Part shown: in pieces, positions 26,189 to 50,671 of the stretch
Layout: the number at the start of each line of letters is the position of its first letter
Numbering within the stretch: the stretch's first letter is position 1
NCBI GenBank assembly: GCA_002104905.1
Contig: MCFE01000640.1
Coordinates: 1-50,671 of the forward strand
DNA length: 50,671 nucleotides
Direction of reading: 5' to 3'
DNA from: Basidiobolus meristosporus CBS 931.73
Taxonomy: Eukaryota; Fungi; Basidiobolomycota
Translations under genes and position numbers: made by a program
Notes under the pieces: generated by a model
Databases searched by the model: none
Seen by the model: only the letters and a program-made list of their open reading frames with translations
Told to the model about the DNA's origin: nothing

Positions 26189-27079
26189 ATGCCCATTTCC
26201 ACCGCCGACTTCGAGAGCCCCGCCTACCGTTGGGTCCCGGTCAAGAACGGGGAGATCCCAACGGGTCAGGCGCTGAATGTCTCCGAGACTTACTACGTCG
26301 GCCGTACGAACCACCCGGACAATGGGGAGCTGGTCTACGGCACCGCCGCCTCCGACACCAAGAAGTTGTGGTACCCATGGGGTGGTGTCGAACATACCGC
26401 CACTAATTACGAGACGCTGGTACTCTCGGAAGGAAGCGAAGCCGTCTGGATCCCCACCCAAGCCCCCCAGGTGCCCGCCGGAGCGGTCGGGGATGATGGT
26501 ACCTACGTCGGCAGAGCCAATGTGGGTGGTAGACTGATCCCAGGGAAGTACATTCCCTACAAGTGGGGAGGGAAGTTCTTCGTCGCCCTACACGGCAAGG
26601 AGCATGAGTTGACCGATGGATTTGAGGTGCTGGTGGTCAAAGCCAAACCCTACACCTGGATCCCAGTGGAGAACGGGGAGATCCCAACCGGGGCCGCCCT
26701 GAACGTCTCCGAAACCTACTACGTGGGACGTACCCGTCATCCTGGGAACGATGAACTGGTCTACGGGACCGCCGCTTCGGATACCAAGAAGCTGTGGTAC
26801 CCTTGGGGACAGCAGGAACACGCCGTCAGCAACTACGAGGTCCTCTCCATCGGTCAGGGCTACGAGGCCCGCTGGGTCGCGGTGCGCGCGCCCGAGCTCC
26901 CCGAAGGGGCGCTCGGCGAAGAGGATATCTATGTCGGTCGCACCCACATCGGTGGTAGATTGATCCCTGGGAAGTACATCCCCCACCAATGGGGAGGGAA
27001 GTTCTTCGTCGCCCTACACGGCGAGGAGCACGAGTTAACCGATGGCTTCGAGGTGTTGGTGATCGAGTCCGTCTATTAA
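26189..27079 (+). CDS. DM9-repeat (DUF3421) protein, four repeats in two duplicated halves, no signal peptide
   Basis: W..G.IP, YVGR, IPGK and EVL repeat motifs; the two ~143-aa halves are highly similar. Confidence 0.85.
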
Positions 27080-27846: not shown

Positions 27847-28800
27847 TGTCGTAAACATCGTAAATACACCCAAACATCCACCTAACCCGGCCACTTAGAT
27901 CATTGCCTACAGATCCTGGAGAATTCAGACCAGATCCCTTGTTGGGACCCGCTTGGACTATTTTCACCGAAATATCAGGTATACAGTACACAGTACATGA
28001 AAATTCCCGAAGTTGGCCAAACCGTGCCAAACTTTGCACACATGCTCTTGGGACCTTCCTGAGCATGTTCTACGGGGGTTTTTTTTGGTCAAGACCATGT
28101 AGAAGTATAAATACCACTTTTCCACTCAGTAAATCATCAAGTGAAAACCTTGTGATCCACTTGTTCCCCCAATCACTTCCAATATCTCCAGACTCTTACA
28201 ATAGGCCATGCGCCTCAATAGGTCCCTCTCTGAGTTGCTTACCACCGCTATTATTGGAATTTTCCCCTCTGCTGAAAAGGTGGATGGATTTAACTACCAT
28301 GTCTGGAAGGTGAAGATGAGCATGCTGCCACAGGAAAGAGGTCCTTGGGATATTCTTGTGGGAAAAGAATGTCCTCCTAATGGTGTAGGCGAAGAAGTCT
28401 TAAGGCACCAGAAGAAAGAACAAAGCACCTTTGACTGCATGTATCTCAATGTCAATCACACATTGCTAGTTCAACGCTCAAAAGCAAAAAGGGCCAAGAA
28501 TGCTTGGAGGGCATCAGAACACTGCTTACCATCATACTCAGCTGCAAAGAAGATGTGTCTTTGACAAAAGGTCTTTACCGCAGAGATGCTTCCAGGAGAA
28601 GAATTGAATAGCCTAATTTGAAGAGGTACCCTGTTGGTTGACAAGATGGGATCAGTTTGTGTACAAACCAATGCCACAGATGTCATAGTTGGAAAGAAGA
28701 TCTTATGCAAATGACAACATTTGAAATGTTGCCAGAAGCAACAAAACACTATATTAAAAGCATTTTTGAGTTGACATGCATTCCCATTGCAATCCTCCAG
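27847..28800 (+). mobile_element. Copia 5' LTR (27847-28203) plus degenerate gag fragment
   Basis: LTR homologous to the other copies; gag SAEKVDGFNYHVWKVKM...WDILVG with stops downstream. Confidence 0.8.
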
Positions 28801-29277
28801 TTCTAAGAAATTGTGAACAGACATATCAAATTTTACCTATTTATACAAAAACTACCATCACAAGACTCAAATCCCAGGACCTAGAGGTCTAGATGCTGTT
28901 AGGAGACTATGCAAAGACTAGTACAAAAGGTTTGCACCATATATTCCTTAAAAAGCTTGGGCAAAGGTTTTCATCCCAGTGGCACCTAGGCTGGTTTTGA
29001 CTATTTCACTGCCATTTTTCTCACTTTCAGATTCTGGACACTCATTTGTCCCCCACATATGTGTACATAGATGGGCTGTTGCTTTTTTTCATATTTCTTA
29101 CTTACTTACTTGACCAGTGCCCTTACTTTTCATCCATTCAAATTGGTATAATTCCATTGAGTCTTCCAATGTAACTCAACTGCTGTACTGACATTTGCAA
29201 GTCTATACTCAATACCTGTTGCAAGCACCTTGGAGATGTTGGAAGTGATTAGGAGGACAAATAGATTATATGGTTTC

Positions 29278-29713
29278 TGTTGAAAAGTGTTTAATCCCAC
29301 TCAAATATACACCTAACTTGGTCAATCAGATCATTGCCTACAGATCTTAGAGAATACTCACCAAATTCCTTCTCAGATTTACTCAGAATATCTTAACCAA
29401 TTATCAAGTACCCAGAACATGGAAGTACTCAAGGTTACCCAAAAAGCCCTAACTTTGCACACATGTTCTTTGGATCTTTTTAAGCATATTTTATGTGTTT
29501 GTTAAGCCAAGACCATGTAAAAGTATAACCACCACTTTTTCATTCAATAAATCACTAAGTGAAAGCCACATCATCTGCTTGTTCTCCCAATCACTTTCAA
29601 TATCTTCTAGACTCTGACAACAGGTCATGGGCCCCAAGCTGTCACTCTCTGCAATGTCCACTACTGCTATTACTGGAATTTTTCCCCCTGCTGAAAAGTT
29701 GAATGGATCTAAC
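29278..29713 (+). mobile_element. Copia 5' LTR (29278-29622), PBS and gag start, interrupted at 29714
   Basis: tgttg...acaaca followed by ggtcatgggcccc and PAEKLNGSN. Confidence 0.8.
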
Positions 29714-30249
29714 TGTTATAATTATTTACTTGTCACCTAAATATTGATACCAACATAGTCACCAAGATCTTGTTCTGTGATTAGCATCTCATCCTGACCA
29801 AAGTACTTGTTGGGATTTACTTGGAAAAAATTTATCAAATTATCAGGTACCCATATGACTGCTGTAAGAGTCTTTGAGATAGTGGAAGTGATTGGGAGAA
29901 CAAGTGGATTAAGTGGTTTTCACTCAATGATTTATTGAATGTAAAGTAGTATTAATACTTTTACATGGTCTTGGCATAGCAAACATAAAAAATCCGTTTA
30001 GGATGGTCCCAAGATCATATGTGCAAAGTTTGGGGCTGTTTGGACAACTTTGAGAACTTTTGTGCTCAGGGTACCTAATATTTTGGTGGAAATATTTAAA
30101 GTAAATCCCAACAAGGATTTTGGTCAATATTCTCTAGGATTTGAAGGCAATGATCTAAGCATATAGTTCAGGTGAGGATATAGGTGGAACTACAAATATT
30201 AATAACACTGCCATTCAAATAAGTGTTCATACTAACTAGTCCTAATTCT

Positions 30250-32831
30250 GACCAAAGAAATTCAAACTTGTCTCTAGCCAATGCCTTTGTGAATATATCT
30301 GCAATCATTTCATCAGTAGGACAGTAAGCTAAGTTAACCAAGTTATTCTCTGTAACTTCACTTATGAAATGGTGTCTAATATCTATGTGCTTAGTTCTAG
30401 CATGAAAAGTTGGATTTTACCTAATTGTATACATCCTTGATTATCCTGAAATAAAGCAATAGGCATTGTTTGACATTTGCCTAAATCTTTAAAAAGCTTC
30501 CTTAGCCACATTGCCTCTTTTGTAGCTTTACAGGCTGTCATGCAGTCTATCTCTGTGGTATAAAGTGCAAAGGTTGGTTGGGTTCTTGAGTTCCATGAAA
30601 TTGCTCCTTTACAGTAAAGAAAGGTGTATCCTGTGGTGGATCTTCTGTGTTTCAAATTTTGTCCCCAAACAGCATCAGAGTATTCCACAAGATCCTGTTC
30701 TGAATCTTCATAAGTTTAACTTAAGTAGATATCAGCAGTTCCTTTTAGGTATCTAAAAATCCACTCAACTCCTGCAATATGATCAGATCCATAGTTCTGA
30801 TTACACTGGCTGACAACTCCCACTGGATATTAGATATCTGGACATGTTCTAAGCATGATATACATCAGACTGCCAACCATAGATTTATAATGAAAGCAGG
30901 GCTTCCAGATGGCACCAGGCACTCTTGATTGGTTGAGTTTTAACCAAGTTAAGGTTTGACTCCATTGGGGTAGCTGCTGGTTTACAGTTGTTGATTTGGT
31001 ACTTCCTTAGTATATCTTGAATATACTTGGACTGGCTTAGGGCTATAGTCTGGGTACTTCTGTCTATGAAGAACTTTATCCCTAAGTAGTAACTGAGCTC
31101 TCCTAGATCAGACATCTTGAACTCCTTAGATGGGCTGGATTTAGTCTCTTTCAATGTTTCTAGGTTATTGGTGACTATAAAAAAAGCATCCACATATATA
31201 GCTAATAGAACTGGATCTGCTCTATCTGGCTCAGGGTAGATACTCTACTCAGCATTACTTCTTTTGAAACTCAAAGATTCCAAATAAGAATCTATTTTGT
31301 AATTCCAGGGTCTTGGTGATTGTTTGAGTCCATTTAGTGACTTTTTAAGCTTGCAGACCAAATGGGGGTTGTCTTGGTCAGCGAACCTGTCTGGCTGGTC
31401 CATATATATGTCCTCATCAAGTTCTCCATTCAAAAATGCAGTTTTTACATTATTCAATGTACAAAAACTTATATTTGGCTGCAATAGCCAATATCAATTT
31501 TATGGAATTAAGCTTGGCTACTGGTGCAAAGGTCTCAGTGTAGTCAAGTCCTTTTGTTTGAGGGTATTCTTTGGCCACAAGTCTTGCTTTGTATCTTTCA
31601 ATTGTACCATCAGCCTTGTATTTTGTCTGAAACACCCACCTGCATTCAATCAATTTTTGGTTGATTGGTAGTTTGACCAAGTCCCAAGTTTGATTTTCTA
31701 CTAGGGCCTGATGTTCCTCAGTCACTGTAGATCTCCAAAACTTTGTCTGAGAGCTGTTGAAGGCCTCTTCTACAGTCTGGGGCTCATTAATATGGACTGA
31801 ATAAGCATAGGCTAAGTTTGTACCCTCATTAATACAGTAATTTGGGCTATTTCTTGTCTGGTTCAATTTCTGGGCAATTGATGCTGGAATGAGAACTTCT
31901 GGGATATTCCTGGGCAGCAATTCAGGCTGAACCATGGTTGTAGAGTCCTCTGGAGGGAAAAAACTTTCATTTTTGGCTCTGATTCAATCCTGACAATTGG
32001 TATACTTGAGATTGTATATTTGTCACCATCTGATGACATTGTTTGAGAAACTTGAGTTTTCATCAAACAGCACATCCCTGGACATGATCAGCTTCTTTGC
32101 TTTGGTATTGCAGAGTCTGTATGAATTACTCTCATTGCAGTAGCCCAATAATATAAATTTTGCACTTTTTGGCTCATATTTTGACTGATTTCTGGGCAGT
32201 TTCTTGGCATATGCTGTACACCCCAATATTCTTAGATATTCTGCACTTGGTATGTATCCATACCATGCCTTGAATGGAGTAGAATAACAGAGTATTCTGG
32301 TATAACTCCTATTTTTAAGGTATACAGCTATAGCAACTAATACCACCCAAAAACTGTAGGATACTTTTTGATCATGGATCATTGATCTTGCCATATCAAC
32401 TATTGATCTGTTTGCACATTTTGCTACCCCATTCTGCAGTGGGGAGTATGCTACAGTAGTCTCTTGCTTTATCCCATCAATTTTGCAGAAGTAGAAGATA
32501 GGTATGAGGTATATTTTCCACCATTGTCCAAGCAGATTTTCTTAATTTTTTAACCAGTCTCTCTCTCCACCATGGCTTTAAGCTCCCTGAGCTTAGACAG
32601 AGCTTCTTTCTTTCTCTCTATGAAGTAGACCCACAGGTATCTTGTATAATCATCAATTACAGTGATTAAATACTACATCCCACTTAATGATAAATTTTGC
32701 ATAGGTCAACACACATCTGGGTGAGTTAAATCTAATCTTTTCTTAGTATTAGTTAACCCAGAGCTCTTGAATAGTTGTCTGGCTTGTATCCTATATATGT
32801 AGGCCTCACAATGCTCCAAACTAGCTGGGGG
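30250..32831 (-). pseudogene. Copia integrase-RT-RNase H remnants
   Basis: IDDYTRYLWVYF, TPLQNGVA, KKLPRNQSKYEPKSAKFILLGY, TFAPVAK, YLGIKF, STTGY; many stops and frameshifts. Confidence 0.9.
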
Positions 32832-32835
32832 ATAA

Positions 32836-33612
32836 AATTTACTCTGGAAATATGAAATTAATTGTAATATCGTTTGGTTAATTCTGTATTTGGCTGTTAT
32901 TTTGATAAATGCACTTTGTTGGATAATTAATCATAAACTTAAATGTTGCAAATCTTTGCAAGTTTTGTTAAATCCATGTTGGTATGATGGAAGTTACAAA
33001 TATGGACTAATTTTTATGTTATTATTGGTGTATATATTTTGTTGTGGTTATCAAAAGGAATTGGGTTTTATATGGTTTATTTTTTATTATATGCATTTTG
33101 CATGTAGTTTAGTAGCTATATACGCAATGTTTTTTTGCAAATTTATTACTTTAAATAAGTATAATTTGCCTATATTAAATAGTATTAACTGGGATATTAA
33201 AATCTCTTATTCTGATGAGGTCAAATTTGGTAGCACTAATATTAAAAACATAGAACGCCTTAGACTTTATGTGGACGCTTATTTATCTGGAAAATATGAT
33301 TATCCAGACAAATATAAACAACAATTTAGACAAAAGTTTAATAATTTAAAACATAAGTTCGATCAAGAATACAACCAGAATGCTGGGCATGAAATAAATT
33401 ACGTATTAAAGCAACAATTGGAACAAAATTTACAAAATGTAAATCAGGAATACAAAAAGTTTGAACGTAATTTAACAACTATAGAACAGTAACACAAACA
33501 AGAAATTCTTGAACAGGAATCCAAACTTTTTAATTTTAAATACATCAAACGTTTATCTGATAACAAACTCAAAGAATTTAAAAATATATTTATGTCTGCA
33601 ATTATATTTTAG
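32836..33612 (+). pseudogene. Insert ORF A: 5'-truncated membrane plus coiled-coil protein; in-frame TAA at 33490-33492
   Basis: Hydrophobic N-terminal helices; the frame continues past the stop as HKQEILEQESKLFNFKYIK...KEFKNIF, homologous to the ORF B C-terminus. Confidence 0.65.
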
Positions 33613-33697
33613 ATATTATAGATGTGATAAAATTATTGTTTTTTGTCAAAATTTACATCTTGATGTTTAAAAAAGTTAATTCGGAAAAAGTTTTAAT

Positions 33698-33801
33698 TTT
33701 GATTTTTAATATTTAAATTTGGTTTTTGATATTTGATTTTTAAATTTTAAATTTGGTTTTTGATATTTGATTTTTAAATTTTAAATTTGGTTTTTGATAT
33801 T
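33698..33801 (+). repeat. Three tandem 34-bp T-rich units
   Basis: ggtttttgatat recurs at 33721, 33755 and 33789. Confidence 0.85.
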
Positions 33802-34063
33802 TAATAATTAAACTTGATATTTGAAAAATGTTTTTTAAAAAAGTTTAAATCTTAATGCAAAAAATTATTTCGGGTTTAATGCCAAAAAATGTACAAATAA
33901 TATAGCAAGAAATTATTAATTCCATTTACGCAAATAAATCAAATACAATTAACTTATTGATGTCAACATTTATGTTATAATATTAATAATACAAAAAAAC
34001 CCTTTCTCAATGTGAGAATTAAGTTACAAAATTGGACAATTGTGTTGAAGATATATTTATATA

Positions 34064-35008
34064 TTGTATATACCACTTTTATACAATCAAATATTTTACT
34101 CAGGCGGATCTGCTAAACACACATATATTGCATGTTTTGTAATTATTGCGTTTTTGATTTTAATAAATGCAACATGTTGGATTATTAATTTTAAAATTAA
34201 ACGCAGAAAGTATTTGCAGGTTTGGTTGAATCCAAGTTGGTATGATAGCAATAAAAAATATGCAATAATAGTGTGTTTGTTACTATTACCAATAATATGG
34301 CGTTTTTTTTGAACAGAATTAAAGAAAAACAAGACTATTATTTGTTATTTGCACTTTGCAATGATATTACTAACTATTATAACCAATCTTGATTTTAGTA
34401 AACCAGAAAGGTGTAATTTATATGTTTTAAATAACATTAAATGGGATATTAAATTATTGCTTAGGGATGGATTTTATTATAACAACAGTAATATATTTAA
34501 TATAATAAATCTCAAAGATTACGTAGGAACTCTTTTATTAATCAATGAATTAAATAATAAATACACCGATAATTTTATACAAAATTTAAAAATTAATTTT
34601 GACCCACAATTAAAAGAGAAATTGGATACGTTGGAGTATGATTTAATTTGGGCTAAACAAGAATCAAAAAGGGTGTTGCAAAAATATGAAGAAGATTTAA
34701 AATACAGATTAAAACTTAAAATGGACAAACAAAGATCAAGGCAAAGATTAGATAGGATACAACAAGAGTTGAAAGGATTGGTCTGGAATTTTAACAAAAA
34801 TATGGAACAAAAACCTGAACAAAAAATTTTACAGCAGTTTGGAAACTTAAGATGCAAATTAGATAGATTAAAAGAAATATTAGAAAAGAAATCCAAGTGT
34901 TTTGAGATTAGATATATAAAACATTTCTCTAACGATGAACTAAAGGAGTTCAAAAATATATTTTTAGATGATGAAACATTAGATGAAGTTAAAATAGGAT
35001 GCAATTAA
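34064..35008 (+). pseudogene. Insert ORF B: paralog of ORF A; single in-frame TGA at 34310-34312
   Basis: ORFs 34064-34312 and 34349-35008 share one frame; LINA.CWIIN, LNP.WYD, MHFA, LN.I.WDIK and KEFKNIF shared with ORF A. Confidence 0.7.
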
Positions 35009-35408
35009 ACAAATATTTTGCATTAAAAAAATTGGGATGAATAAAAATAAATTTTTGGTAAATAAGTTATTATGTTTGAATTAAAAAGATTTTTTGTATG
35101 ATTAAGTTTTGGGTTTAGAGTATTTGTTTAAGTTTTTTGGGATGACAAAGTTGAGATCTTGATGTTTAAAAAAGTTAATTCGGAAAAAGTTTTAATCTTG
35201 ATGCTTAAATTAAGTTTTTGATTTTTGATTTTTAATATTTAATATTAAAATTTGGTTTTTGGAAAATGTTTTTTAAAAAGGTTTGAGTCGGGTTAAGAAT
35301 ATTGTTTGATTGTTGTATATAATAACATACAATTTTTACGAAACTTAAAAAAAAATTTCTTGCATTCTTACAGACGTTGAAGTTGCAGAAGTAAATACAG
35401 ATCTTACT

Positions 35409-35762
35409 TTGAATGCGTTAACGTTTTTGAACAAAGATCTTTTTAATATGATATCTTTGTCTACTAATAGTGTTGTTACAAATGGATCATGCCAAGGATA
35501 TAATTATTTTGGTTATTTAAACTACAACAATAATACAAATATAAATATTTTGCAAAACAAGACTTTTGAAGCAATTAATTTGTGTTCAACAAATGGTTCT
35601 ATGTATTGTTCTGCCCAATGTAGTTATATCAACTTTATAAATACAAAAATGTATACAAATATTACAACTCTGGGTAGGAATTGTGTATTTCCAATTGGGT
35701 CAAGCAGTTCTAAAATAACTATAAACGGGTTGTTTATAATGTTAATTGGCATTATGATTTAA
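35409..35762 (+). CDS. Insert ORF C: Cys/Asn-rich glycoprotein-like fragment with hydrophobic tail
   Basis: Five N-X-S/T sequons, five Cys, SSSS then TINGLFIMLIGIMI; frame open from 35349 with no clear initiator, so probably 5'-damaged. Confidence 0.45.
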   Translation: MNALTFLNKDLFNMISLSTNSVVTNGSCQGYNYFGYLNYNNNTNINILQNKTFEAINLCSTNGSMYCSAQCSYINFINTKMYTNITTLGRNCVFPIGSSSSKITINGLFIMLIGIMI

Positions 35763-35879
35763 AACTGGTTAAAAAAAAATAAACAAAATATACATTAGAA
35801 TAAAAACATAGATTAAAAAAATCTGGACTAAAAGTCTGGAGAAAACTTTTTTATTTGTCAAAGTTTAGTCAAAAAAGTT

Positions 35880-36305
35880 TTGCGTGATGACAAAGTTTAG
35901 ATCTTGAAAAGAGTTTGGCGGGAAGACTAAACTAAAATCTTGAAAAAGTTTAGTCGAAAAAAGGTTGCGTGATGACAAATTTTTTTAAAAAGAGTTTTGC
36001 GTGATGACAAAGTTTAGATCTTAAAAAAAGTTTGGCAGGAAGACTAAACTAAAATCTTGAAAAAAGTTTGGTCAAGAAAGTTTTGCGGGATGACAAAGTT
36101 TAGATCTTGAAAAAGGTTTGGGTCAAGAGAGTTTGGGAGTAGAAAGATTAAGTTTGGTCAAGAAAGTTTTGCGGGATGACAAAGTTTAGATTTTGAAAAA
36201 AGTTTGGTCGAGAAAGTTTTTTAGGATGACAAAGTTTTAATCTTGATGTTTAAAAAAGTTTTTTAAAAAGTTTTCATGATGATAAAGTTTGGATCTTGAA
36301 AAAGA
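35880..36305 (+). repeat. Array of at least 7 copies of gatgacaaagtttagatcttgaaaa with related spacers
   Basis: Copies near 35886, 35970, 36003, 36089, 36175, 36225 and 36278, plus a dispersed copy near 35140. Confidence 0.85.
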
Positions 36306-38112
36306 TGTTAATTGGAGTTTGACGGTTAGACTTTGGGAAATGTTGTTAGAGAAAGATTAGGGTTTATAAAAAAAGTTTTATTAAGGGGTGGGAGTTAGGT
36401 TTGAAAGGAGTTTTAAAAAGGGATAATCATTGGGTTAGAATGGTTATTGTTCAAAATTTAAGATAAGATCTTTGGTGGTGCTAGCATAGCCGTTAATCTG
36501 GAGTTTATTTTGGTGGGTTTTAACGTGACAGTTTTTGCAAAGAGCAACGAGATTAGATTTAGAATTTTTGTGGCAATGGTCGATCATACCATTGTTTTCA
36601 GAAGTGTGTTGATGTTGGATATGGTGGACATTGATAGGGAGGTCGGTGGTTTGGGTAGGGACGTAGTTGCAGATTTGACATTTGTAAACAAGTTTATCTT
36701 TGTTGTAACGGCTATATTTGGAGTATTGGTTTAGAAGACCATTGGCAATAGTGGGACAAGTTTTATCTTCACGGGACAAAATGTTGGCACGGATTTGGAA
36801 AGCTTTTTGGAGGAAGTTAGAGTCCATGTTAAGGAATTCGCAGACTTTGAGGCCATAAATGGAGTCACAGGGGCCTTCTTTAATTTTGCGTTCAAAGATA
36901 ATAACATTTTTAGAATTAATATGTTCAAAATTAACAGAAAGATGAAAAACTTTAACGTTGGGAATATCTTTGATAAATTTGTAGATGTTGTGTAAATGGG
37001 TGGTGAACATAAAGCTGATATTTTGTTTGGCAAGAGTCATGACGCTGGAGGCAAAGATGGCAGATCCAGAGATATGTTCTGTGCCGTGGATAATTTTGTC
37101 GGCAAGAACTAAAGTGTAGGGGTCGGCACATTTGAGGATATTTCTAAGGTCAGACATTTTGGCAACAAAGAAGGATTGGCCTTTGAGAATATTATCTTTG
37201 CTAAGGATGCAAGTCATGAGAGATTTGTAGGGAGAGAATTTGAAAGAAGAAGCGGGGACAAAGGAGCCCATTTGGGCAAGGATGATGGAGAGGCCACAGG
37301 CTTTGAGGAGGCTGGTTTTGCCACAGGAGTTCATGGAGTATAAGATGATACCGTCATGGTTGTTGGTACCAATGGTGATATTGTTAGGGACATATTCTAG
37401 ATTAGTTTGGAGGCGTTCAATGAGGGGGTGATGGAGATCAGTGGCTTTAAAATAACTTTTGTTGGAGAGTTTGACAACAGGGCGGCAGAAGTTGTAGAGG
37501 CAACTAATTTTGTAGTTAGATTTAATAACGTCAAATTCGGCAACAAAGAGTTTGATGCAACAAAAGATATTTTTGTAAGAAGATAAGTGTTTGAGGCTGC
37601 TAAGGAAGAGAGATTTAAGTTGTTTGTTAATTTGGTCATCTAGGGAGAGAATATGATTGCTAATGTGGGTTAGGCTGTTGGAGGAGATTTTGGTGTTTAA
37701 TTTGTCAGATTTAAAGGTAATGTAATTGTTAGAGATGAAAGATTTGGTTAAGGAAGATTTAAGTTTGGTGGCAAAAGAATTGGTGACAGAAAGATAGTAT
37801 CCAGAGCGGGGAGAATAGTCGACTTTAATGGGGATAAGTTTTTTGTTGACATATTTGCGTGAGGTAGAAGAAAGATAAGAGAGGGCGTGAGAAGAGAGAG
37901 CAAAGGCAATATCTTCTAATTTGTCAAGTTCAGAAGTTTGAGAGTTGGAGAGGGAGTCAAGATTGGGGAAGATACCTTTGCAAAAGATGGAGGGATCAAG
38001 GGTGCCAGTGGTGGGGATATTATCAATAACAAAGATACAAGAGATGTCGTTAACAAATTTGTTAAGAAGGGAAATTTTGTGTTGAGACAAGAGGATATGT
38101 TGTAAAGAAGAT

Positions 38113-38430
38113 TTGGGAGGTAAAGTTTGTGGGTTAGGAAGATCATCAGATGAAGAGGAGTGTCTATTGGGAGGCTCATCGGATGAAAAGGAGTGTCTAT
38201 TGGGAGGCTCATCGGATGAAAAGGAGTGTCTATTGGGAGGCTCATTGGATGAAAAGGAACGTCTATTGGGAGGATCATCAAATGAAGAGGAGCGTATATT
38301 GGGAGGCTCATTGGATGAAGAGGAGCGTATATTGAGAGGCTCATTGGATGAAGAGGAGGGTATATTGGGAGGATCATCAAGTGAAAGAGTTTGTAGGTTG
38401 GGAAGATCATGAGAGGAAGAAGTAGTATTA
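38113..38430 (-). repeat. In-frame 33-bp tandem repeat (~8-9 units, PNRHSFSSDEP-like) inside MutS7
   Basis: Repeated gaggctcatcggatgaaaaggagtgtctattgg variants on the plus strand. Confidence 0.9.
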
Positions 38431-39300
38431 GGGGAGGAGAAGGCAGGAATAAGAAGATTGCAAAGATCAAGGATAGCTTTGTAAGAGGTATAGAGTTGAG
38501 AAAGTTTGGGTAAAGTTAGAACTTCTAATAAAAGTTGGCGATGAAGTTGTTCAAGCTTGGCAATATTAGTTAAGAGACGATCGAAAGTTTTTACGGAAGG
38601 TTTGAAGAGAGAACCAAAGTTGTCAAGTTGGCAATAACGATGTTTTAATTTGTGGGGATTGGTGACAGGAGAGAGGAGACGCTTTTTAAGGAGTTGTTTA
38701 CCCATTTTAGTAGAACAGAGATTGATAATGTCAAGTAAACATTGGGTTTGATTAGATTTGTGGGAAGACTTGGATTTGGGGAAGTGGATAAGATCAAGTA
38801 GGTCTATAGTATTGGTGGCAAGGAGAAGATGGTTGGAGGATAAAAAGATTTCAGGAGGGGAAAGTTTGCGGACAAGCACAGGATTGTGGAGGTAAAGGAA
38901 TTCTATAAGAAGGACGTAACTAATAAGAGCGAGGGGTTTGCGTTCAAGATCTAAAAATTCTATGTTGGAGAGCATGGTTTTGTGGGGGAAGATGTTGCCT
39001 AATAGTTTGTTCTGGTAGTTGAGTTGAAGAGCTTTAGGAGTGGCATCTATGTAATGGAAGAGGATATTGTTGGAGTAGAGTTCTAAGTAAGATACAAGGT
39101 TGAGGGATTTAATAAAGTCTAAATATTTGGAGGGAGAGCAGAAGACAACTTCACAAGGGTGGTATTGTTTGAGGAAGGAGAGGATATGATCAAAAGAGAG
39201 ACAATGATCTTTGGGGGTAGAGTTAGATTTGTAAACGGTATTTTTACCGGTAATAACATCAATGGCACTAATACCAATGTTAAAAGAGATATTATTGGAT

Positions 39301-39372
39301 TCAGAAATTAATTTTTTATTGGTGTCAGAAATTAATTTTTTATTGGTGTCAGAAGTTAATTTTTTATTGGTG
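39301..39372 (-). repeat. In-frame 24-bp repeat x3 (SDTNKKLI) inside MutS7
   Basis: tcagaaattaattttttattggtg units at 39301, 39325 and 39349. Confidence 0.85.
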
Positions 39373-39990
39373 TCAAAGAATAAGAGAACAAGATAATTGC
39401 GAGAGACAAGAGATTTGTCAACGTCAACATAGGTGGAGGGGCTAATAATATTGGTAACTTTGCGGGTGATATTGGGAGGGGAACCTTTTTGGTCAATAAT
39501 AACAAGGGTGTAGTTATGCTTGAGTAATAAAGGGATGTATTTTTTAAGTGCGACACAGGGGAAGCCGACGAGTAGGGGGTTGGAGCGGTTGTTGTAAGAG
39601 AGTTTTTAATTTTTTTTAGTTAGGATGATATTATGGAGCTCGGAGATATTGGCTGGGTTACCAAGTTTTTTGGTATTGTTGTCAACACCGTAAATTTTGT
39701 AGAAGCTACCGACTTGCATAAGAACAATGAGTTGTTGACCATATTGGTGTTGGTAGAGAGTTAAAAAATTAAAGTATTTGTTGACAACGGATTCTTTACT
39801 CATGTTCAATATATGAAGGGGTGGATGAGGGTGTAACCAATTTAATTGGATGGAGATGAGAATGGGATGGACATGGATAGTTTAGTGGGATATTTTTTAA
39901 AAGGCAGGGGGGAGGGTTCAACAATCAAAGAAGAGATATACATGGGGCGTAAAGAGAGGATAGAAATAAAAGTTGTTAGTAGAATATATC

Positions 39991-41300
39991 TTCAAGTATA
40001 AATTTGGCACTACAGTAGTAAACTTTGCACAAGTAATGAAAATTGATATACACATATCTCCTATGCCAAAGCCTTGGTGCTTCTTCCTTCAAGTTACTTA
40101 TATTGGCTTCCAGATATGATGGAACTTAAGTCAACTTATACAGATTCTGATCTCCAATACCCAAAGCAATATGGGCACCATTTTGATCAGTGATCCTGCA
40201 TCCAGAATTGTCAAAGCTGAAGCTGAGTCCTTCTACAGTGGCCTTGCTTACAGATAGTTGGTTCTTGGCTATTTCTGGCACATAGAGTACTAATTTGGAA
40301 GTCAGTGTATGGCTTACTTCACTGCTTCTGAGGTTTACTTGGATAGTTCCTTCTCCCACTGCATCAAGTGTTCTATTGTGACCTATGAAAACCTTCTTAA
40401 TTGAAATCTCTTAGTATTGGGTAAGACGCTCTTTTTGGTGAGTAAAGTGTTGAGATGCTCCAGAGTCAATGTACAACATCTGAGATTTCTTGTTTGTGGT
40501 CATATATGGTGTAGATATGAGTAGTCTATCTTCAGTTGTTGCAGCATTTCCATATTCAGGCTTCCTTTGCTGATTATCTCTCTTTTTGAGACACCAGTCA
40601 GATTTGTGTCCATTCCTTTTGCAGTAGTTGCAAAACAGGTTGCTGTTGCCTTTGTAAGGTCTTGGGTACCTCCTTTGTTGGTTACCGTAACTTATTAAGG
40701 CATTTTCTTCTTCCTTCTTATTGGCACTTGATTTTCTTGATTCTTCAGCCAGGAGCCTTCCATATATATAATTTAAGGTCAAATCTTCAGCTCTGAACTC
40801 TAGGGCTGATATAAGGCGCTGAAACTTGTCTGTCAGGCTATTCAGGATGGTAACTATCTCATCCTCATCAGTAGTTGGTATGCCCATAGATTCCATCTCA
40901 TCCTCCAGCAGGGTACTTCTGTTAATAAGATTCTTGATTTCTTCTCCTGGCATCATCCTTGTAGTAAAGAACTTTTGTCTTGGATACATTTTCTTGCCAG
41001 CCAAACATGAAGGTAGGTGCTTTCTAATGCCTTCCAGGCATTCTTTGCTGTTCTTGCTCTTGAGCATTAAATTAGTTATTTGTCTTTACCATTATGGCAA
41101 ATGCAGATAAAGACACTTTGCTCTTTCTTCTGGTACTTCAAGGCTTCCTCTCCCACATTTTTAGGAGAGCATTCTTCTCCCATGACAATATCCTAAAGGC
41201 TTCTTTCTTGTAGCAGCATCTTCATCTCAACCTTCCACACTTGACAGTTGGATCTATCCAACTTTTCAGCAGAGGGAAAATACTAGTAATAGCAGTAGTA
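39991..41300 (-). pseudogene. Copia gag, zinc knuckle, protease and first half of GAG-pre-integrase
   Basis: RQKFFTTRM, CNYCKRNGHKSDWC, LYIDSGASQHF, NQLSVSK, LWHRRYVYINF. Confidence 0.88.
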
Positions 41301-41336
41301 GACATTGCAGAGAGTGACAGCTTGGGCCTCATAGAG

Positions 41337-41684
41337 TATTGTAAGAGTCTAGGAGATATTAGAAGTGATTGTCAAGACAAGTAGATTATGTGGTTTTCAC
41401 CTAATGATACATTGAAAGCAAAAGTAGTATTTGTACTTTAACATGATCTTGGCATAAAGAACATGTAGAATAGATTTAGGAAGGTCCTAAGAGCATGTGT
41501 ACAAAGCTTGGGGTGGTTTGAACAACTCTGAGAATATTCAGGTTCTGGGTATCTGGTATTTTGATGAAAACATTCTGAGTAAATACCAGCCAGGAATTTG
41601 AGCAGTATTCTCTAGGACCTGAAGGCAATGATCCAAGTGACTAAGTTAGGTGAATATTTAAGTGGAATTCAAATTTTGACAACA
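41337..41684 (-). mobile_element. Copia 5' LTR of the split element
   Basis: tgttgtca...ttacaata in element sense, followed by a degenerate PBS and gag. Confidence 0.85.
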
Positions 41685-41940
41685 GATGGATCTAACTACC
41701 ATGACTGAAAGGTAAAGATAACAATGCTGACATAGGAAAGAGGTCCTTGAGATATTTTGTGGGAAAGGAATGCACTGCTAATGGTGTAGGAGAGGAAGTC
41801 TCAAGGTATCACAGAAGGAACAAAGCACTTTTGACAGCATATATCTTAATGTCAAATGTATATGGCTACTTCAGTGTTCAAAAGCAAAAATGGCCAAAAT
41901 GCCTGGAGGGCAATGGAACACACCTTACCATTGCCCTATG
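41685..41940 (+). pseudogene. Plus-strand Copia gag fragment (DGSNYH*KVK...)
   Basis: Homologous to gag at 28280-28520; resumes where the gag at 29640-29713 stops. Confidence 0.7.
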
Positions 41941-43213
41941 AAAAATAACTTGGTCCTGCAGGTGAATCTGATCCAGATCTGCCATCAGGATCCCATTTGG
42001 ACTCTGTCATAATGCCAGCAGCTTGGAATTAGTGACCCTCTTAACAATCTTTTGATGGAATCACAACAGCATATAGCTAATTTTACTGTTAAATAAATGT
42101 ATAAAACTTGACAGGGTTTGATTGGTGCTCTGGCAATAATTGCATGGTATTGTTGTGGTTGTAGTGTGTGGTACCACCATCTTAAATGGATTTATCTGGC
42201 CTGTACATCCAACTTTTTTATATGGCAAATAACTTGACGGTGTTTTAAAGGCCTCATTGCAAGTCTCTAATGGCATTATGACAGCACTATGGCAGCCTAT
42301 ACCTTGTTATATATAGTGCTACCATACCAATTTACCAAATGGTACTTTGTTTTTCTACCTCCCCTTGTACAATTCATATATTCCACTGTAGAATCACCCC
42401 TGTTATTTACTCACACACTACTACCTTGGGTATTCCATCTATAGTTCAAATAAAAAAGAACTATGGCCTCCTGCTTACTAATCTCTGCAGACATGCACAC
42501 CTGCTACAATTGGCATACTTCTATCACCTCAACTTTACAGCTTTTTAGTGTGATACTTGCAAAGTAGCCATATACCTTGTACTACTGGTAACATACACAT
42601 ATTGCAAACATATGCTTAGTTGCCACCACTAGTGTTGTGAATACCTCCTGAGTATCCACAGAGTACCTTTTGGTATTTAGCCAATATATTCCTATCATGA
42701 TCACATGACAACCATGAACACCTGTGCCAAGTTTCAGCTCCCTAGCTCAATTTCTAAGAGATTCCTTCTGGAACCTTCTACCACCTTCCAGAAAGTTCCT
42801 GACCATTCCAAATCATTGTTAAACAATGGAACATTCCATGGAAGCTTTCCATTGTATTTTTCATAGTACAGTACCATATATGGAAATACCAGGTCACATG
42901 ACTTAGTCGCATGATCAGGTGACCCAATCCATCTCCCATCCCGTCTCAGTGCCGTGTCATCTATGTCAATATCCCCAGCACCATTGCTGTGCCTCACTCC
43001 ACAACCCCATTAGTATTAGCTGATATCTCTTGGCATCAGTATAGCCAAAAGTATATATAGTCCTATCCCCCCTTAAGTATTCCTCAGTCTGATAAACACA
43101 GGTCTTGAATAAACAGCCTTGCCTTGAATCCTGCCTTGCCTTGATGGTCCACACCTAAGTCCTTTCCTGCCATGCCTAGCTTTTCCTCCTGCCTTGTGTC
43201 TATTCATAACAGT

Positions 43214-43224
43214 TTTATCAGACT
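43214..43224 (+). promoter_or_regulatory. Self-priming primer-binding site (Tf1-like)
   Basis: tttatcagact is the exact reverse complement of agtctgataaa at 43086-43096, ~30 nt downstream of the LTR TATA box. Confidence 0.75.
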
Positions 43225-44169
43225 CTCCTGACTTACCTGTGAATCCCTGCCTTCTGCCCAAAGTTTGAAGAAAACTTGTAAAAGGAATACTCACTGTAAG
43301 TATCACCCATCATCTTTCCCTAGTCTTGTCCTATAAAGGCAAAGATGCTTTATCTTTGTAAAACTATTGGTCAAAGCTGCATTCACTTTATTACCCTGCT
43401 GGTGGAGTTTACAGTTGTTACAGTATTGGAAGCTTTAGTACAATACTCTATCAAAGGATGTCAAAACCAGTACCTTCTGAAGTGACGCTGTGGTGGTGTA
43501 TAAGTCCAGAGGGCAAAATACGGCCAACACTTCTCAAGTGTGAATGTGTGTGGGGTGTTCACTGGGTGTGATAACCTCTGGCAAAAGCTTGCTAGGAATA
43601 CTGGGTCTTTTGTCTAATCTAATGTGATGGGGGATAAAGCCTCAAGCTTGTCAAGGGAAAACTATTGAACTACAATCCCCAACTTAGTTGGTGTCTTAAC
43701 AAAAGTTTATAATGGCTTTGATGTCCTTTGAGATGACAATGTACTAAAGCTTCCAAAGTCAAAATAACTGTAAACTCCACCAACAGGGACTTGATAAGAA
43801 TGCAGCTTTGACCAATAGTTACAAAGACTGAAAAGTATCTTTGCCTGTACAAGAACAAACTTGGGAAAACAAACAAATATAATAAAATATACCTACTCTG
43901 AGTATTCCTCACAAGTAGTGCCTCCAAGGTCAGTTGGCTGTCAGCACGGTTTCCTGGGCGTTGTGGTGGTGTAGAGGTACTCCTGGGAGAAGCTACACAA
44001 CTCAAGGTGTGTGAGGTGTTTGATGGGTGCAATAACCTCTGTGTCTAAACTGCTGGTGTCTTTGTCAATATGTCACTATGGTAAAAGCTCCTGCTTCTCT
44101 AGCTTCCTAGGTGCTCCAAGTGTCTCCAAAGGCCTCTGTGTGTCTTGTGCACTACCCTGAAAAGCTCCT

Positions 44170-45379
44170 TGATGGCAGGTCTGAGATGTACTGTTGAAGG
44201 CAGGTGCAGTGATCAACTGCTAATCAATAAGGTAGAAGTGTTACTGATAGAAGGGATGATTTATTGATGAGGGATTGCTTTCCCTTAAATACTTTTCCTG
44301 ATTGCCAAGTGATTACTAATGTAAAGGTTCTAGAAGATTCTAGGTATCAGTGGAATTCTTGATGACATCACAATGAGCTAAAAATATGCCGAGAATGTCC
44401 TGGAAGGTTCTAAAAGGCACAGCACATTCAACCAATCAGGAATCAGTTGTCTGAAACCTATGCAACATAGAAATACCATACATGGTATTGAAATGGTAGG
44501 GATGGTAACACAGACTTAGGTCATGTGTCACAGGTACTGACGCGGGTACTTGCCTTATATAGATACATCTACTGATTACAAAGCTGAATAACATCTGGGA
44601 TAACTAATGCTAATAACTAATCAGGGTAAACATCATATGGGGATAATACAGATAATATGGGCAAAAGAAGAATGGGATAATACTGATAAGATAAAATATG
44701 GATAAGTATATCATAATGACTATATGAGTAAACTTGTCTGTGGGAGGTTTGTTTACCCTACCACAGCGTGTCGTCAGGTCTGAGTCAGAAAATAGTGGTA
44801 ATAGGTAGCGGTGATCTCACTAATCAATAAGTCGGAATATTGGAAGAGGGATCATTTATTTTAAGGGATAGCCTCCCTTATATACTTTTTTGCTGCTTGA
44901 ATTCTTGCTAGAAAATACTTTCCGGAAGTTTCCAGAAGGTAGTAGACAACCAATCATGTCTTTGTGTACTAAAAATAGCGCAAATTCTTGGCGGATTGTT
45001 CCATGAGACATAGTAGCACCTAGCCAATCAGGTAGTGGTAATATGAAACCTCTGTGTCATGTGGTTGCCTCTTATGGTAGTGAGATGGGGGGGGGGTTAT
45101 GAAACCAAGATGGTCACGTGACATGGGCACTGTTGGGGTACTTGCCTTATAAGCTAACTATCTTATCTTGGCATCTTGGCAAGGAATAAGAATAGCTTGT
45201 GCAATGGGTTAATAGTGACAAATAGTTTGTCAGGTTGCATAGTAATAATCACATAGACAAAAATAGGAAATATTGCAAATTTGGGATGATAATAATATAG
45301 GCGGGGTAATCCTTTTTAGGGAAGTGAACGCATAAGAATGAGCACATCTGCCTGTGGGTGTCACTGTGACCCCACTACA
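44170..45379 (-). mobile_element. Two tandem ~600-bp solo-LTR-like units (44170-44765, 44769-45379) nested in the chromovirus leader
   Basis: TG...CA ends, colinear diverged homology (caggtctgag, ctaatcaataag, ccaatcagg, gggtacttgccttata); TATA then AATAAA on the minus strand; no TSD found. Confidence 0.6.
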
Positions 45380-45511
45380 ACGCTAACTTATTTAAGTTGG
45401 GGATTGTGGCTCAATAGCTGTATTCTTACATACTAGTGGCTTTACAAACCCACAATCTAGTTTAGTATATTCCAGTATTCCTTGCAAGTTCATCCTCCTT
45501 CCTCTGCTACC

Positions 45512-46444
45512 ATGTCCAACCTAGAGCTGAACTTTGCCCAGCTCATGGCTGCCTTTACCCAACTGCATCAAGACCATGCAGGCCTCAGAAACACTCTTGC
45601 TCAGTTCCAGAACCAAAGTGTCCAGCAAACTAGCCATGTCCCAGTCTACCAAGAACCCAAGTATACTCCTGCTACCAAGTTCAATGGCTCTCAGAATGAA
45701 TTCCGTGGCTTCATCAACATGGTGAAGAACAATCTTGCCCTCCAGCCCAACCAGTACCCCACTGACCAGGCCAAAGTTGGTTTCATCTCCAACCTGCTTA
45801 CTGGTACAGCTCTCAAGTGGTTCTCCCCATTAGTGGAGACCAACTCTCCCCTCTTCAGAGACTACCAAGCTTTTCTCACCGAAATGGAGCTAACATTTGG
45901 TGACCTTGACCAAGCCAGAACTGCTGCCAACAAGATCAAGACCCTCAAGCAAGGGAACAAACCAGCATCAGTCTATGCCTCAGAATTCCGACAACTCTCC
46001 AGTGACCTCAGCTCCTGGGGTCAAGCAGCCTTGATTAGCCAATTCCAAGATGGCCTCAATGATGAAGTTTGTGATCTACTACTCACACTCCCAGATCCAG
46101 ATACATTGGTTGAAGCTATGCACCAAGCAATCCGGTGTGATAACAGACTATTCCAGAAGAAGCAAAAGAACCGTCAAAGACACATTCCTGTTGCAGTCCC
46201 AGCCCCTCCTGCTCCCCAAGTCACTCCAGAAGATCCTATGCAGATTGATAGTGCCAAATACAAGAAACAATCATAGAGTGAAAAGTCCAGACGTCAACAA
46301 GCCAACCTCTGTCTATACTGTGGCCAACCAGGTCACTTTGCCAAGTCCTGCCCCAACAAGAAGTCCAGCTTCAAGCTGATGCAGTCCTCCAGCAACCAAC
46401 CTGATTCAGATCTGTTGGGAAACTCCAATGTCCAGTTGCACTGA
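45512..46444 (+). pseudogene. Chromovirus gag with CCHC knuckle; in-frame TAG at 46274-46276
   Basis: LLTGTALKWF, YASEFRQL, FQDGLNDEV; [14 protein letters not shown] lies in frame after the stop. Confidence 0.9.
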
Positions 46445-46537
46445 CAGGCTTGCAACTGGACCCACCCATGGAAATCCAGCATATCCAAGAATCTTCCTTT
46501 GCCACAAAATCTATCCAGTCCTTGAGAATGCCTGTCA
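46417..46537 (+). promoter_or_regulatory. -1 programmed ribosomal frameshift signal
   Basis: G GGA AAC at 46417-46423 in gag phase; 10-bp stem 46431-46440/46451-46460; loop complementary to 46530-46537; pol is in the -1 frame. Confidence 0.85.
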
Positions 46538-49500
46538 AAATCCAGATCCCTGACTCCAGTCCTGTCCCAGTTCTAGCCCTGATTGATTCCGGTGCTTCAT
46601 CCTGTTTCATTGACCAAGCCTTTGTCCAGAAGCACTCTATTCCTGTTACCTTGAAATCCTGTCCAGTCCAAGTAGAAGTTATTGATGGAAGATCACTCTC
46701 CTCTGGTGCCATTACCCATGAAACATGCTTACTTCAGCTGTCCAGTACTGCTCACCAAGAAAGAATTGCCTTCAACATCATCAACTCACCACACTATCCT
46801 ATTGTGCTTGGAAGCTCATGGCTGAGCTACCACAATCCAAGTATTGATTGGAAATCCAAAATCCTGTCATTCACCAGATCCCACCAAGTCAACTCCATGA
46901 AATCTCCAGACCCTGATAACCGTGAAAAGACTGTTGCCAACAGTTCAACAGCCCAAGATACCTTGCCAGCTGAAGGAGCCCCCTCAGCAAACATACCAGC
47001 CAAGTACCAAGAGTTTACCCATGTGTTTGACAAGAAGAAAGCAGAACTCCTCCCTGACCATTGGCCTTATGACTGCCCTATTGACCTTGAAGATGGAAAA
47101 GTCCCTCTATTTAGCCCAATATATAACCTCTCCCAGCCAGAGCCAAAAGAACTCCATGGTTATATTGAAGAAAACCTCCAGACGGGTTTTATTCAGCACT
47201 CCAATCACCTGCTGGAGCCCCAATCCTCTTTGTCAAGAAGAAGGATGGCACACTCAGAATGTGTGTGGACTACCGTGCTTTGAATAAGATCACATTCAAG
47301 AACCGCTACCCCCTGCCCCTGATCAACACACTGTTGGATCAGCTCTCTGCTGCCCAAGTCTTCACCAAGATTGACTTGAGAGGAGCCTACAATCTTGTCA
47401 GAATCAAGCCCGGTGTTGAATGGAAAACTGCCTTTTGCACAAGATATGGTCACTTTGAGTACAAAGTAATGCCATTTGGCCTCACCAATGCCCCTGCTGT
47501 GTTTCAACACCTCATGAATGACATATTCCGTGAATACCTTGACCAGTTTGTGGTAATCTACCTTGATGATATTCTCATATACTCCAAGAGCCAAGATGAA
47601 CATGATGAACATGTCAAGAAAGTATTGAGAAAACTAGACTCTGCCAGTCTCTATCCCAAGCTAGAGAAGTGTGAATTTGACCAGAGAGAAGTGGAATTTC
47701 TTGGTTACCTCATCAGCCCTGAGGGAACAAGAATGGACCCAAAGAAAGTTGACTCAGTCCAATCCTGGAAAACTCCAAGCTCAGTCAAGGAAGTACATCC
47801 TTCCTGGGATTTGCCAACTTCTATTGCAGGTTCATAGCCAACTACTCCAAGATAGTCACCCCTCTGACAAAGCTTACCCAGAAGAACACACCTTTGGCCT
47901 GGAATGAGGAGCAATCCAGCTCATTCAACCAACTCAAGAAATCTTTCCTGAAGGCCCCCCTGCTTGCCCACCCTGACCTTGAGAAGCAATTCATAGTGGA
48001 GACTGATGCTTCTGATTTTGCCCTTGGTGCCATACTCTCCCAGGATGATGAGGACAATGTGTTGCACCCCATTGCATTCTACTCTTGGAAGTTTTCCCCT
48101 GCAGAGATCAACTATGATATCTACGATAAGGAGTTACTTGCCATCATTGTAGCCTTTGAGCAATGGAGACACTACCAGGATGGTGCAAAACACAAAATCA
48201 AAGTCTTCTGTGACCATAAGAACCTTGAGTACTTTGCAACTTCCAAAGTACTAAACCGGAGACAAGCCAGATGGTCACTCCTCCTGTCCAGCTTTGACTT
48301 TACTATCACCTATAGACCTGGTGCAAAGCAAGGAAAGCCTAATGCCCTGTCCAGAAAAAAGGAATATGTCCTGGAAGAGGGAGATGATGCCTGTTGGCAA
48401 ATGAAACACCCATTGCTGAGCAAGAAACATTTTGAGATTCTTGCCACCCAGTCCTCAAGTCTTGTCATCCCTTCATTCCTAGTAAGGATATCAGAATCCC
48501 AAGCCTCTGATATGACTTCCAGCACTGTCAAGAAATATCTGGAATCCCCAGTTGGGCCCCCTCCCAAGTTCCCAAACATCCAGAACCTGCATTTGGTAAA
48601 CAACCTCATCTACCACAAGCAGCAGCTTTATGTCCCAGACCTTGCCACCCAGCTAGACATCATTAAGTCTTGGCATGATTTAATGGCTGCAGGCCACTTT
48701 GGTACTGTCAAAACCTTGAATGATATCAAAAGAGATTTCTGGTGGCCTAGAATGATAACTCTTATCAAAGAATACATTCTGACTTGTGATATTTGCAACC
48801 ATGCAAAACCAGCTAGACACCAGCCCTATGGACTTCTTCAGCCCTTGCCTATCCCAGAACACCAATGGAGATCTATATCTATGGACTTCATTACTGACCT
48901 CCCTGAGTCATGTGGCTTCAATGCTATACTTGTAGTGGCTGACCGGCTGACCAAGATGGCTCACTTTATCCCTTGCTGTAAGAACACTGATGCAAAAGAA
49001 ACTGCTGTTTTAGTCCTGAAGAATATTTTCCGCCTTCATGGTATCCGCAGTGATATTGTGTCAGATTGAGGCCCACAGTTTGTGTCCAAGTTTTGGAAAC
49101 ACTTCATGCAATACCTTGGTGTTCAAGTCAAGCTCTCTACTGCCTTCCATCCACAGTCTGATGGCCAGACTGAAAGAATCAACCAGATTCTAGAGCAATA
49201 CCTCCGGTGCCATATCAATTACCAGCAAGACAATTGGGTTGATCTACTCCCTGTTACTGAGTTTGCCTACAACAACTCAAGCCATAGTGCAATCAGTTTT
49301 ACACCATTCTATGCAAACTATGGATTCCACCCTCAGTTTGATATCCAGATTCCAACAAACCCAATGAGCCCACATGCGGCTGAACATGCCCATGCAATCC
49401 AGGACATCCAGAACACCCTCAAGGAAGAGCTATCCTTAGCTCAGGAAAGCTACAAGAAATTTGCCAATCTAAAATGGCATCCCAGCCCTGATCTTAATGA

Positions 49501-49963
49501 AGGAGATTCTGTATGGTTGCTCAGAAGAAACATCAGCACCAACTGCCCTGATGACAAGTTGGATTTCAAGAAACTTGGTCCCTTCAAGATCAAGAAGAAG
49601 CTTAGCCCTATAGTATATCAGCTACAGTTACCAGCAAGTATGAAAATCCATGATACTTTCCATGTGTCCCTCCTGGAGCCGTATTGTAGGAACACATTGC
49701 CAAACTGGCAAGAAGCAAAGCCCCAAGCCATCCAGGTTGACCAACATTAAGAATTTGAAGTTAAAAAGATTCTAGACTCCAAGTATATCCAGTCAAAGCT
49801 GTACTACTTAGTAGACTGGATTGGTTATGATCCAAGTGACCAAACATGGGAACCAGCTACCCATCTCACTGATTGTCAACATCTAGTTACCCAGTTCCAC
49901 CAACAATATCCTGCAAAACCTGCCCCGAAGGAAAACAGAGCTTCGCCTGGAAGAGGAGAATAG
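46420..49963 (+). pseudogene. Chromovirus pol (protease, RT, RNase H, integrase, chromodomain) with two frameshifts and two stops
   Basis: [73 protein letters not shown]...TWEP; lesions at ~47203, ~47798, 49067 and 49748. Confidence 0.92.
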
Positions 49964-50671
49964 TGTCATGATCACATGACAACCATGAACACCCGTGCCA
50001 AGTTTCAGCTCCCTAGCTCAATTTCTAAGAGAATTCCTTCTGGAACCTTCTACCACCTTCCAGAAAGTTCCTGACTATTCCAAATCATTGTTATACAATG
50101 GAGCATTCTATGGAAGCTTTCCATTGTACTTTTCATAGTCAGTACCATATATGGAAATACCAGGTCACATGACTTAGTCACATGATCAGGTGACCCAATT
50201 CATCTCCCCATCCTGTCTCAGTGCCGTGTCATCTATGTCAATATCCCCAGCACCATTGCTGTGCCTCACCCCACAACCCCATTAGTATTAGCTGATATCT
50301 CTTGGCATCAGTATAACCATAAGTATATATAGTCCTATCCCCCCTTAAGTATTCCTCAGTCTGATAAACACAGGTCTTGAATAAACTGCCTTGCCTTGAA
50401 TCCTGCTTTGCCTTGATAGTCCACACCTAAGTCCTTTCCTGCCGTGCCTAGCTTTTCCTCCTGCCTTGTGTCTATTCATAACAATTCCTTCTCCCTGCTG
50501 GATTCTAGTCCCCCTTATAGGTGCATTCTGGCTCTTGTTTGTGTGAATTTCATATTGAATAGTGTAGAAGTTGGCTTGTGACCAAGAGAAGCCTGGCATA
50601 ATTTGGTAGAGCATTCCTATTAAAAATTAGATGCTTGTTGCACCCAACTCAACTTTGCATTACTTATCAAA

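Follow-up and report, generated by a model that had tools for sequence, protein, structure and literature searches.

MutS proteins with a C-terminal HNH domain are defined as MutS7 and are described from Nucleocytoviricota, Campylobacterota and octocoral mitochondria (PMC3166940, citing Ogata et al.). Among the literature matches listed, none reports a fungal MutS7 by its title or the start of its abstract, and a search joining Basidiobolus with Nucleocytoviricota found no paper, most subscription papers lying outside both searches. In two Basidiobolus species, Gong et al. (2020) described fossils of Pithovirus-related ‘fundsalphaviruses’, with PolB as the probe (PMC7017919). In B. meristosporus, these PolB fossils lie amid copia domains, and Fig. 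S2 of that study places a fundsalphavirus DNA polymerase beside MutS domains on a contig of 33,329 bp. In the accessible parts of the study, MutS appears only where Fig. S2 labels domains and is unmentioned in the main text, which also gives no account of the segment analyzed here, of an HNH fusion, of CpG decay or of a high-depth form. In the literature found, fundsalphaviruses are represented by fossils only, and the sole active fungal giant virus belongs to the unrelated Mycodnaviridae of Allomyces. The Mycodnaviridae of Allomyces and other zoosporic fungi resemble the lineage studied here in being fungal giant viruses with integrated copies but differ in being capsid-defined and placed near Imitervirales/Algavirales (Myers et al. 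2026, PMC13533422). The first sign of their replication came from strain Cali8, where coverage was about 50-fold in excess; the capsid search produced one non-zoosporic match, Dimargaris, and Basidiobolus and MutS are unmentioned in the accessible text. Giant-virus DNA under CpG methylation is known from insertions in Physcomitrium, Amoebidium and Acanthamoeba; in listing earlier accounts of 5mC-marked insertions, the accessible part of PMC12344493 names no fungus. The accessible parts of PMC13524828 and PMC12142844 leave the present reading unaltered.

The window analyzed here is a stretch of 50,671 nucleotides (contig MCFE01000640.1) of B. meristosporus CBS 931.73. Very probably, it holds a broken MutS7 gene within a 7.2-kb island that cuts a copia pol gene, the island being likely a fundsalphavirus fragment that was likely inactivated by CpG methylation. 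The virus lineage is already published for Basidiobolus; its MutS is here recognized as MutS7.

The MutS7 pseudogene (36444..39803, minus strand) comprises 1,119 codons and encodes MutS domains I, III, IV and V followed by HNH, as identified by translation, Pfam and PHROG searches. It starts with the ATG at 39803 and closes with a stop codon ending at 36444. The original prediction assigned two separate ORFs to one frame broken by a single stop, and both indeed lie on the minus-strand frame 39809-36444, whose translation is free of frameshifts over 1,119 codons and meets a single internal stop, a TAA at 39606..39608 (minus strand; codon 66 from the ATG), at a position occupied by Lys in 8 of 8 other aligned proteins. 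The TAA consists of assembly letters; the read-contig rows listed did not include 39606-39608. The shorter of the two ORFs (67 aa) opens at a TTG two codons before the ATG, and the stop-to-stop frame downstream of the TAA spans 1,053 codons (36444-39605).

When the read-through protein is searched with X at the stop, Pfam detects MutS_I (E=3.4e-9, above the cut-off), MutS_III (7.3e-12), MutS_IV (3.1e-5) and MutS_V (1.9e-34). The region between the two ORFs was predicted to encode the rest of domain I and domain II; for domain II, the paralogue ORX78500.1 yields no more than a faint match (E=0.0035). The HNH domain (36486..36686, minus strand) displays the motif CxxC...HH...N...CxxCH, with the change D1058N adjoining the His pair. 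Pfam does not report HNH when the whole read-through protein is searched; the C-terminal piece alone (last 90 residues) yields a match just under the cut-off (E=9e-4, 19.7 bits compared with 21.4), 13 of its 14 PHROG matches are HNH endonucleases (best E=1.5e-6), and a PDB sequence search with it returns weak zinc-finger and cytochrome matches only (best E=0.033). The HH-N-H pattern is present in 163 of 202 alignment rows and in none of the 16 bacterial MutS1 rows. The anticipated MutS-HNH fusion is thereby confirmed, as is the expectation that profile searches would match MutS_I, MutS_III, MutS_V and HNH. The NCBIfam scores for mutS1 (208, cut-off 642) and mutS2 (99, cut-off 400) fall below threshold.

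Two in-frame tandem repeats, both on the minus strand, explain most of the surplus size over the relatives of about 930 aa. The first has a 24-bp unit in 3.5 copies, located 3' of domain I (39292..39375); the number of units varies, with one extra copy in ORX78500.1 and 48 bases fewer in a variant from another sample (X4-X6, discussed below). The second has a 33-bp unit in 7.2 copies (38143..38378) and forms a Ser/Pro-rich insert in domain III, which is likely the ‘Mucin-like’ block in Fig. S2 of Gong et al. (PMC7017919). Like described MutS7 proteins, the window frame combines domains I, III and V with a C-terminal HNH domain containing HH-N-H and groups with giant-virus MutS-HNH proteins; unlike them, the window copy is a pseudogene with a stop, lost catalytic residues and two in-frame repeat inserts at a nuclear site in a fungus.

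The best protein match is ORX78500.1 of B. meristosporus, which is 93% identical and encoded on contig MCFE01000822.1 of 33,329 bp; because this is also the length of the polymerase-bearing contig of Gong et al., the paralogue is placed on the latter. The next 70 matches listed are proteins of about 930 aa that are 47-62% identical over the searched C-terminal part. In a FastTree phylogeny of 80 rows subsampled from 202, rooted by 7 bacterial MutS1 rows, including no named octocoral, Campylobacterota, MSH1-6 or MutS2 sequences and with long branches meeting near the root, the window falls on the 73-row non-MutS1 side (support 100). Together with ORX78500.1, it belongs to a 29-row clade (support 100) that includes the relatives L001, L002 and L080, on whose contigs the neighbors include split RPB1, PolB, D5, FEN1, helicase or dUTPase. 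Thus, the predicted giant-virus link is upheld, both by the grouping with giant-virus MutS-HNH proteins and by the NCLDV core genes adjoining the relatives. The subclade of about 930-aa proteins (45-48% identical overall) stands apart from the majority of GVMAG MutS7 in the phylogeny, and its profile matches solved MutS1 (1e-74), MSH2/3/6 (1e-66 to 1e-60) and MutS2 (1e-30) structures only distantly. A metagenome scan yielded at least one locus. With the decayed C-terminal protein as the query, no relative was found in viral_contigs, because the peptide patterns carried decayed residues; alignments used as the query did find relatives.

The window itself encodes neither PolB nor capsid protein, so that the assignment to a virus lineage is indirect, by way of the contig bearing the paralogue and of the relatives. 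In a 45-row PolB tree with unreliable rooting, the L002 and L080 polymerases belong to a 29-row clade (support 99) with Physcomitrium PolBs, apart from the rows of Pithovirus LCPAC104 and iridoviruses; Gong et al. count the Physcomitrium PolBs among the fundsalphaviruses (PMC7017919). This PolB evidence points to a lineage that would be distinct from the Mycodnaviridae. Like the published endogenous fundsalphavirus elements (PMC7017919), the locus comes from the same genus, has a paralogue on a contig listed there, is surrounded by copia-rich sequence and contains stops. We hold with high confidence that this is a real MutS7 pseudogene within a fossil of the published virus lineage.

Among the relatives, 22 of the 70 closest listed are on contigs of 53-89 kb and only one is on a longer contig (137 kb), hinting at compact genomes in this virus group. 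Three relatives are on contigs of the same sizes as those carrying PolBs of the moss-virus clade (13,280, 42,600 and 60,831). The PolB of L080 (9980-13120), a MutS7-bearing relative, includes an intein-like stretch (Pfam E=6e-6, below the cut-off).

Depths of 80-250 times nuclear DNA are within the range of organelle DNA. Such an excess, recorded for the X4-X6 variant, would be accommodated if the gene were a nuclear copy of an octocoral-like mitochondrial MutS7 and the high-depth variant were mitochondrial; alternatively, the gene could be bacterial, of the Campylobacterota type, given the many bacterial transfers reported in Basidiobolus (PMC10386755). Such an origin, bacterial or mitochondrial, is highly improbable: 5 loci turned up among 185,579 scanned prokaryote genomes, with 22-35% identity and all on MAG contigs of 1-50 kb, the nearest relatives adjoin NCLDV core genes, and the paralogue lies beside a viral PolB (PMC7017919).

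The likely endogenous viral island that contains the pseudogene occupies about 7.2 kb (32853..40015), as delimited by GC content, skew, an X4 piece that begins at 32853 and a loose contig end at 40013. Its GC content is 21-25% outside MutS (33-36 kb) and 39% within MutS, with a skew of 0.5-0.6 over MutS. Besides MutS7, the island encompasses two members of an ORF family and one further ORF, all on the plus strand and without a match in Pfam, NCBIfam or PHROGs. Copy 1 (32853..33600), with a hydrophobic N-terminal part and a likely coiled-coil C-terminal part, has a stop at 33490-33492; its single homologue among 67 candidates is K493DRAFT_308697, encoded on a 33,329-bp contig (93% identity over 156 aa), relative to which the E>K and D>N pattern plus a stop recurs. 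Copy 2 (34049..35008), about 35% identical to copy 1, is split by a stop at 34310-34312, and the third ORF consists of 137 codons (35349..35762). An AT-rich intergenic repeat array (35856..36302) is built of a 38-nt unit family with 10 copies within the island, including those at 33629 and 35128; a 25-nt stretch of the repeat has no exact match in viral_contigs.

The island is bounded on both sides by halves of the same decayed copia element, on the minus strand. The 5' half (40027..41085; Pfam-type domain search) contains gag, Pol_BBD and a cut GAG-pre-integrase, whose profile ends at position 42 of 67, near 40020, right of the island; the 3' half (30168..32851; domain matches and ORFs) contains integrase, SH3, RT and likely RNase H. 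Read evidence takes the form of contigs, in which summed depth gives no copy number, and hence single-record depths are used. In contigs from X1 and X2, 21 other letters take the place of the island between 32851 and 40027, so that these contigs show the unoccupied site of other copia copies. From the domain break and these empty-site joins, it follows that a single copia pol gene received an insert of about 7.2 kb, which split the GAG-pre-integrase domain. The replacement of about 21 bases fits end-joining rather than integrase or copia-borne transfer. The segment is embedded in host DNA, inside copia pol, with host genes 5 kb away and with stops and CpG decay.

The window copy and ORX78500.1 differ at 64 of 913 aligned positions, of which 5 (459-469, 622) flank a 200-aa gap in the ORX78500.1 gene model and may be misaligned. 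CpG transitions account for 43 of the 64 differences: 34 of the 36 G>A changes are preceded by C (33% expected, p=1e-14) and 9 of the 14 C>T changes precede G (6.7% expected, p=4e-8; base-context null in both cases). A RIP-type mutation at CpA was rejected, as the changes sit in CpG context. Change is one-sided, with FastTree end branches of 0.073 for the window and 0.002 for ORX78500.1. About 190 columns are conserved in 95% or more of 58 relatives; at 15 of these, the stop counted, the window deviates where ORX78500.1 does not, compared with a median of 2 departures among the 58 relatives. These lesions include E36K in Phe-X-Glu and E903K in Walker B (we take the Phe-X-Glu and Walker A and B residues of MutS7 from established knowledge, with PMC3166940 as an additional guide), along with R791H, R865C, S878F, E882K and T905I. 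The S878F allele is present among X1 contigs at a depth of about 66. The stop itself arose by an A/T transversion, not a CpG change.

An intact frame, Phe-X-Glu and the Walker B DE pair, all expected of a functional enzyme, are lost through the TAA at codon 66, E36K and E903K. The description of a near-complete gene hidden by a single stop was therefore misleading: with 15 lesions at conserved sites, the window copy is a decaying pseudogene that read-through would not rescue. Stop read-through and an alternative code were rejected, since the lesions elsewhere would persist. A functional, domesticated fungal MutS7, with the stop a sequencing error or read through, could draw on the single stop and the lack of frameshifts in 1,119 codons, on the intact HHNH residues and Walker A, and on the absence of the stop from the read-contig rows listed; against the catalytic and other conserved-site changes, the CpG-biased and one-sided character of the change, the broken neighboring ORFs of the island and the X1 support for S878F, it is extremely improbable. 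About 200 residues of domain III are missing from the ORX78500.1 gene model, in which a false intron was likely placed across the repeat insert; apart from this, the paralogue is almost undecayed and may represent a very recent or unmethylated insertion.

Remnants of LINE-type RT, copia and Ty3/gypsy elements (4828-6156, 28000-32850 and 40027-50000) are almost CpG-free, which is a strong sign of repeat-directed CpG methylation, as far as base composition can tell. The observed-to-expected CpG ratio is 0.00-0.10 in four retroelement stretches, 0.61 in MutS and 0.65-0.97 in eight host genes, a contrast that fits a recent arrival of MutS7 in a methylated repeat zone. Host CpG methylation thus likely inactivated the viral island; in the insertions of PMC12344493, 5mC is described, whereas here methylation is read from the mutation spectrum alone. 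No 5mC data for Basidiobolus were found among the literature matches listed, including the accessible part of PMC10538959.

The course of events can be envisaged as follows. In the virus, MutS7 would have bound mismatches via Phe-X-Glu and used its ATPase, and its own HNH domain would have nicked DNA, making it a self-contained repair enzyme as proposed in PMC3166940. A copia copy that was by then depleted of CpG would have broken and taken up viral DNA at the break, with about 21 bases replaced; methylation of the repeat neighborhood presumably spread over the island, 5mC deamination would be erasing it, and the window copy would yield no working protein.

In X1, the window host genes are matched over 5,837 bases with 0 differences at a depth of 247, so that X1 may be the source of the window assembly and thus not independent of it. 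Island pieces with 0-2 differences have depths of 40-50, and the window alleles overall 40-66 (32960-34763, 37171), compared with 216-247 for the host flanks. X1 also contains several further MutS7-like pieces at depths of 82-243; given these depths, the MutS7 family appears to be multicopy, with the window copy under-represented. The low depth of the window copy may reflect AT bias, presence in one haplotype or a partly composite assembly. In X3, from the same sample, only the copia bins are covered. The occurrence of window alleles at a fifth to a quarter of the host depth, together with the lack of a contig spanning the island-copia junction among those listed, would suit a contaminant or misassembled free-virus DNA fused in silico to fungal sequence. 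Such an artifact is very unlikely: a free virus would not be expected to show CpG-specific decay and stops, the two junctions coincide at a single point within one copia domain, where about 21 bases are replaced, and PolB fossils amid copia domains are on record for B. meristosporus (PMC7017919).

The X4-X6 contigs come from three DNA runs of one other sample (S2) with the same species label. There, the host genes are on one 6.9-kb contig with depths of 30, 30.6 and 13.7, respectively, and an in-frame, seemingly undamaged MutS7 variant, roughly 88-90% identical to the window (with 202 letters differing across about 1,730 bases), is represented by contigs of 0.4-2.2 kb with depths of 5,806-7,507 (X4), 6,220-7,494 (X5) and 2,718-3,274 (X6), that is, 194-250 times the host genes; its AT-rich neighbors reach 78-91 times. 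Among the 23 examined of more than 800 differing places, the indels leave the reading frame intact (+9, -48 and, twice, a +1/-1 pair within 6 bases), the variant carries the paralogue residue at 8 of 8 positions where the window differs from ORX78500.1, and 12 of the 13 other differences are synonymous. The retroelement pieces listed for X3 measure 57-88 bases, compared with kilobase contigs for the variant, which suggests uniform copies. X4 also contains a separate MutS7-like piece at depth 22, the host level. At 32959, 34158, 34246, 36437 and 40013, the variant contigs extend into sequence that the window lacks, and they join 32992 to 34415 and 34455 to 33824; this suggests that the island ORF family has additional members, arranged differently.

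This Basidiobolus culture may harbor extrachromosomal, replicating Pithovirus-related DNA that encodes MutS7, at about 100-250 copies per host genome, a reading of contigs from one sample on which our confidence is evenly divided. Alternatively, the high-depth variant may be mitochondrial, may stem from recent chromosomal amplification or from a small circle amplified during library making, or may belong to a virus of a co-cultured organism. If replicating viral DNA is indeed present, the fundsalphavirus and moss-virus lineage would gain its first replicating member, in a non-zoosporic fungus that can be cultured and whose sister strain carries the silenced fossils, and a natural intact MutS7 would be on hand for probing the proposed self-contained mismatch repair. 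Should the public reads hold the whole replicon, the genome, capsid status and natural host would be directly testable. The window locus, for its part, adds MutS7 to the gene set of the fundsalphavirus lineage, and its mutation spectrum shows the likely way in which giant-virus DNA, once captured, is destroyed by a fungus.

The left part of the window carries host-type ORFs, namely an amino-acid transporter, TCP-1, aldehyde dehydrogenase and DM9, along with retroelements. Located at 12944-16554 and 17322-20472 are two tandem polysaccharide (likely chitin) deacetylase genes and two arrestin-domain genes in divergent orientation, each long and uninterrupted. A 280-aa ORF (7852-8694, minus strand) combines weak LPMO matches (AA10/AA9) with a CBM5/12 module, and the DM9-repeat protein (26189-27079, plus strand) has four repeats and a GC content of 61%.
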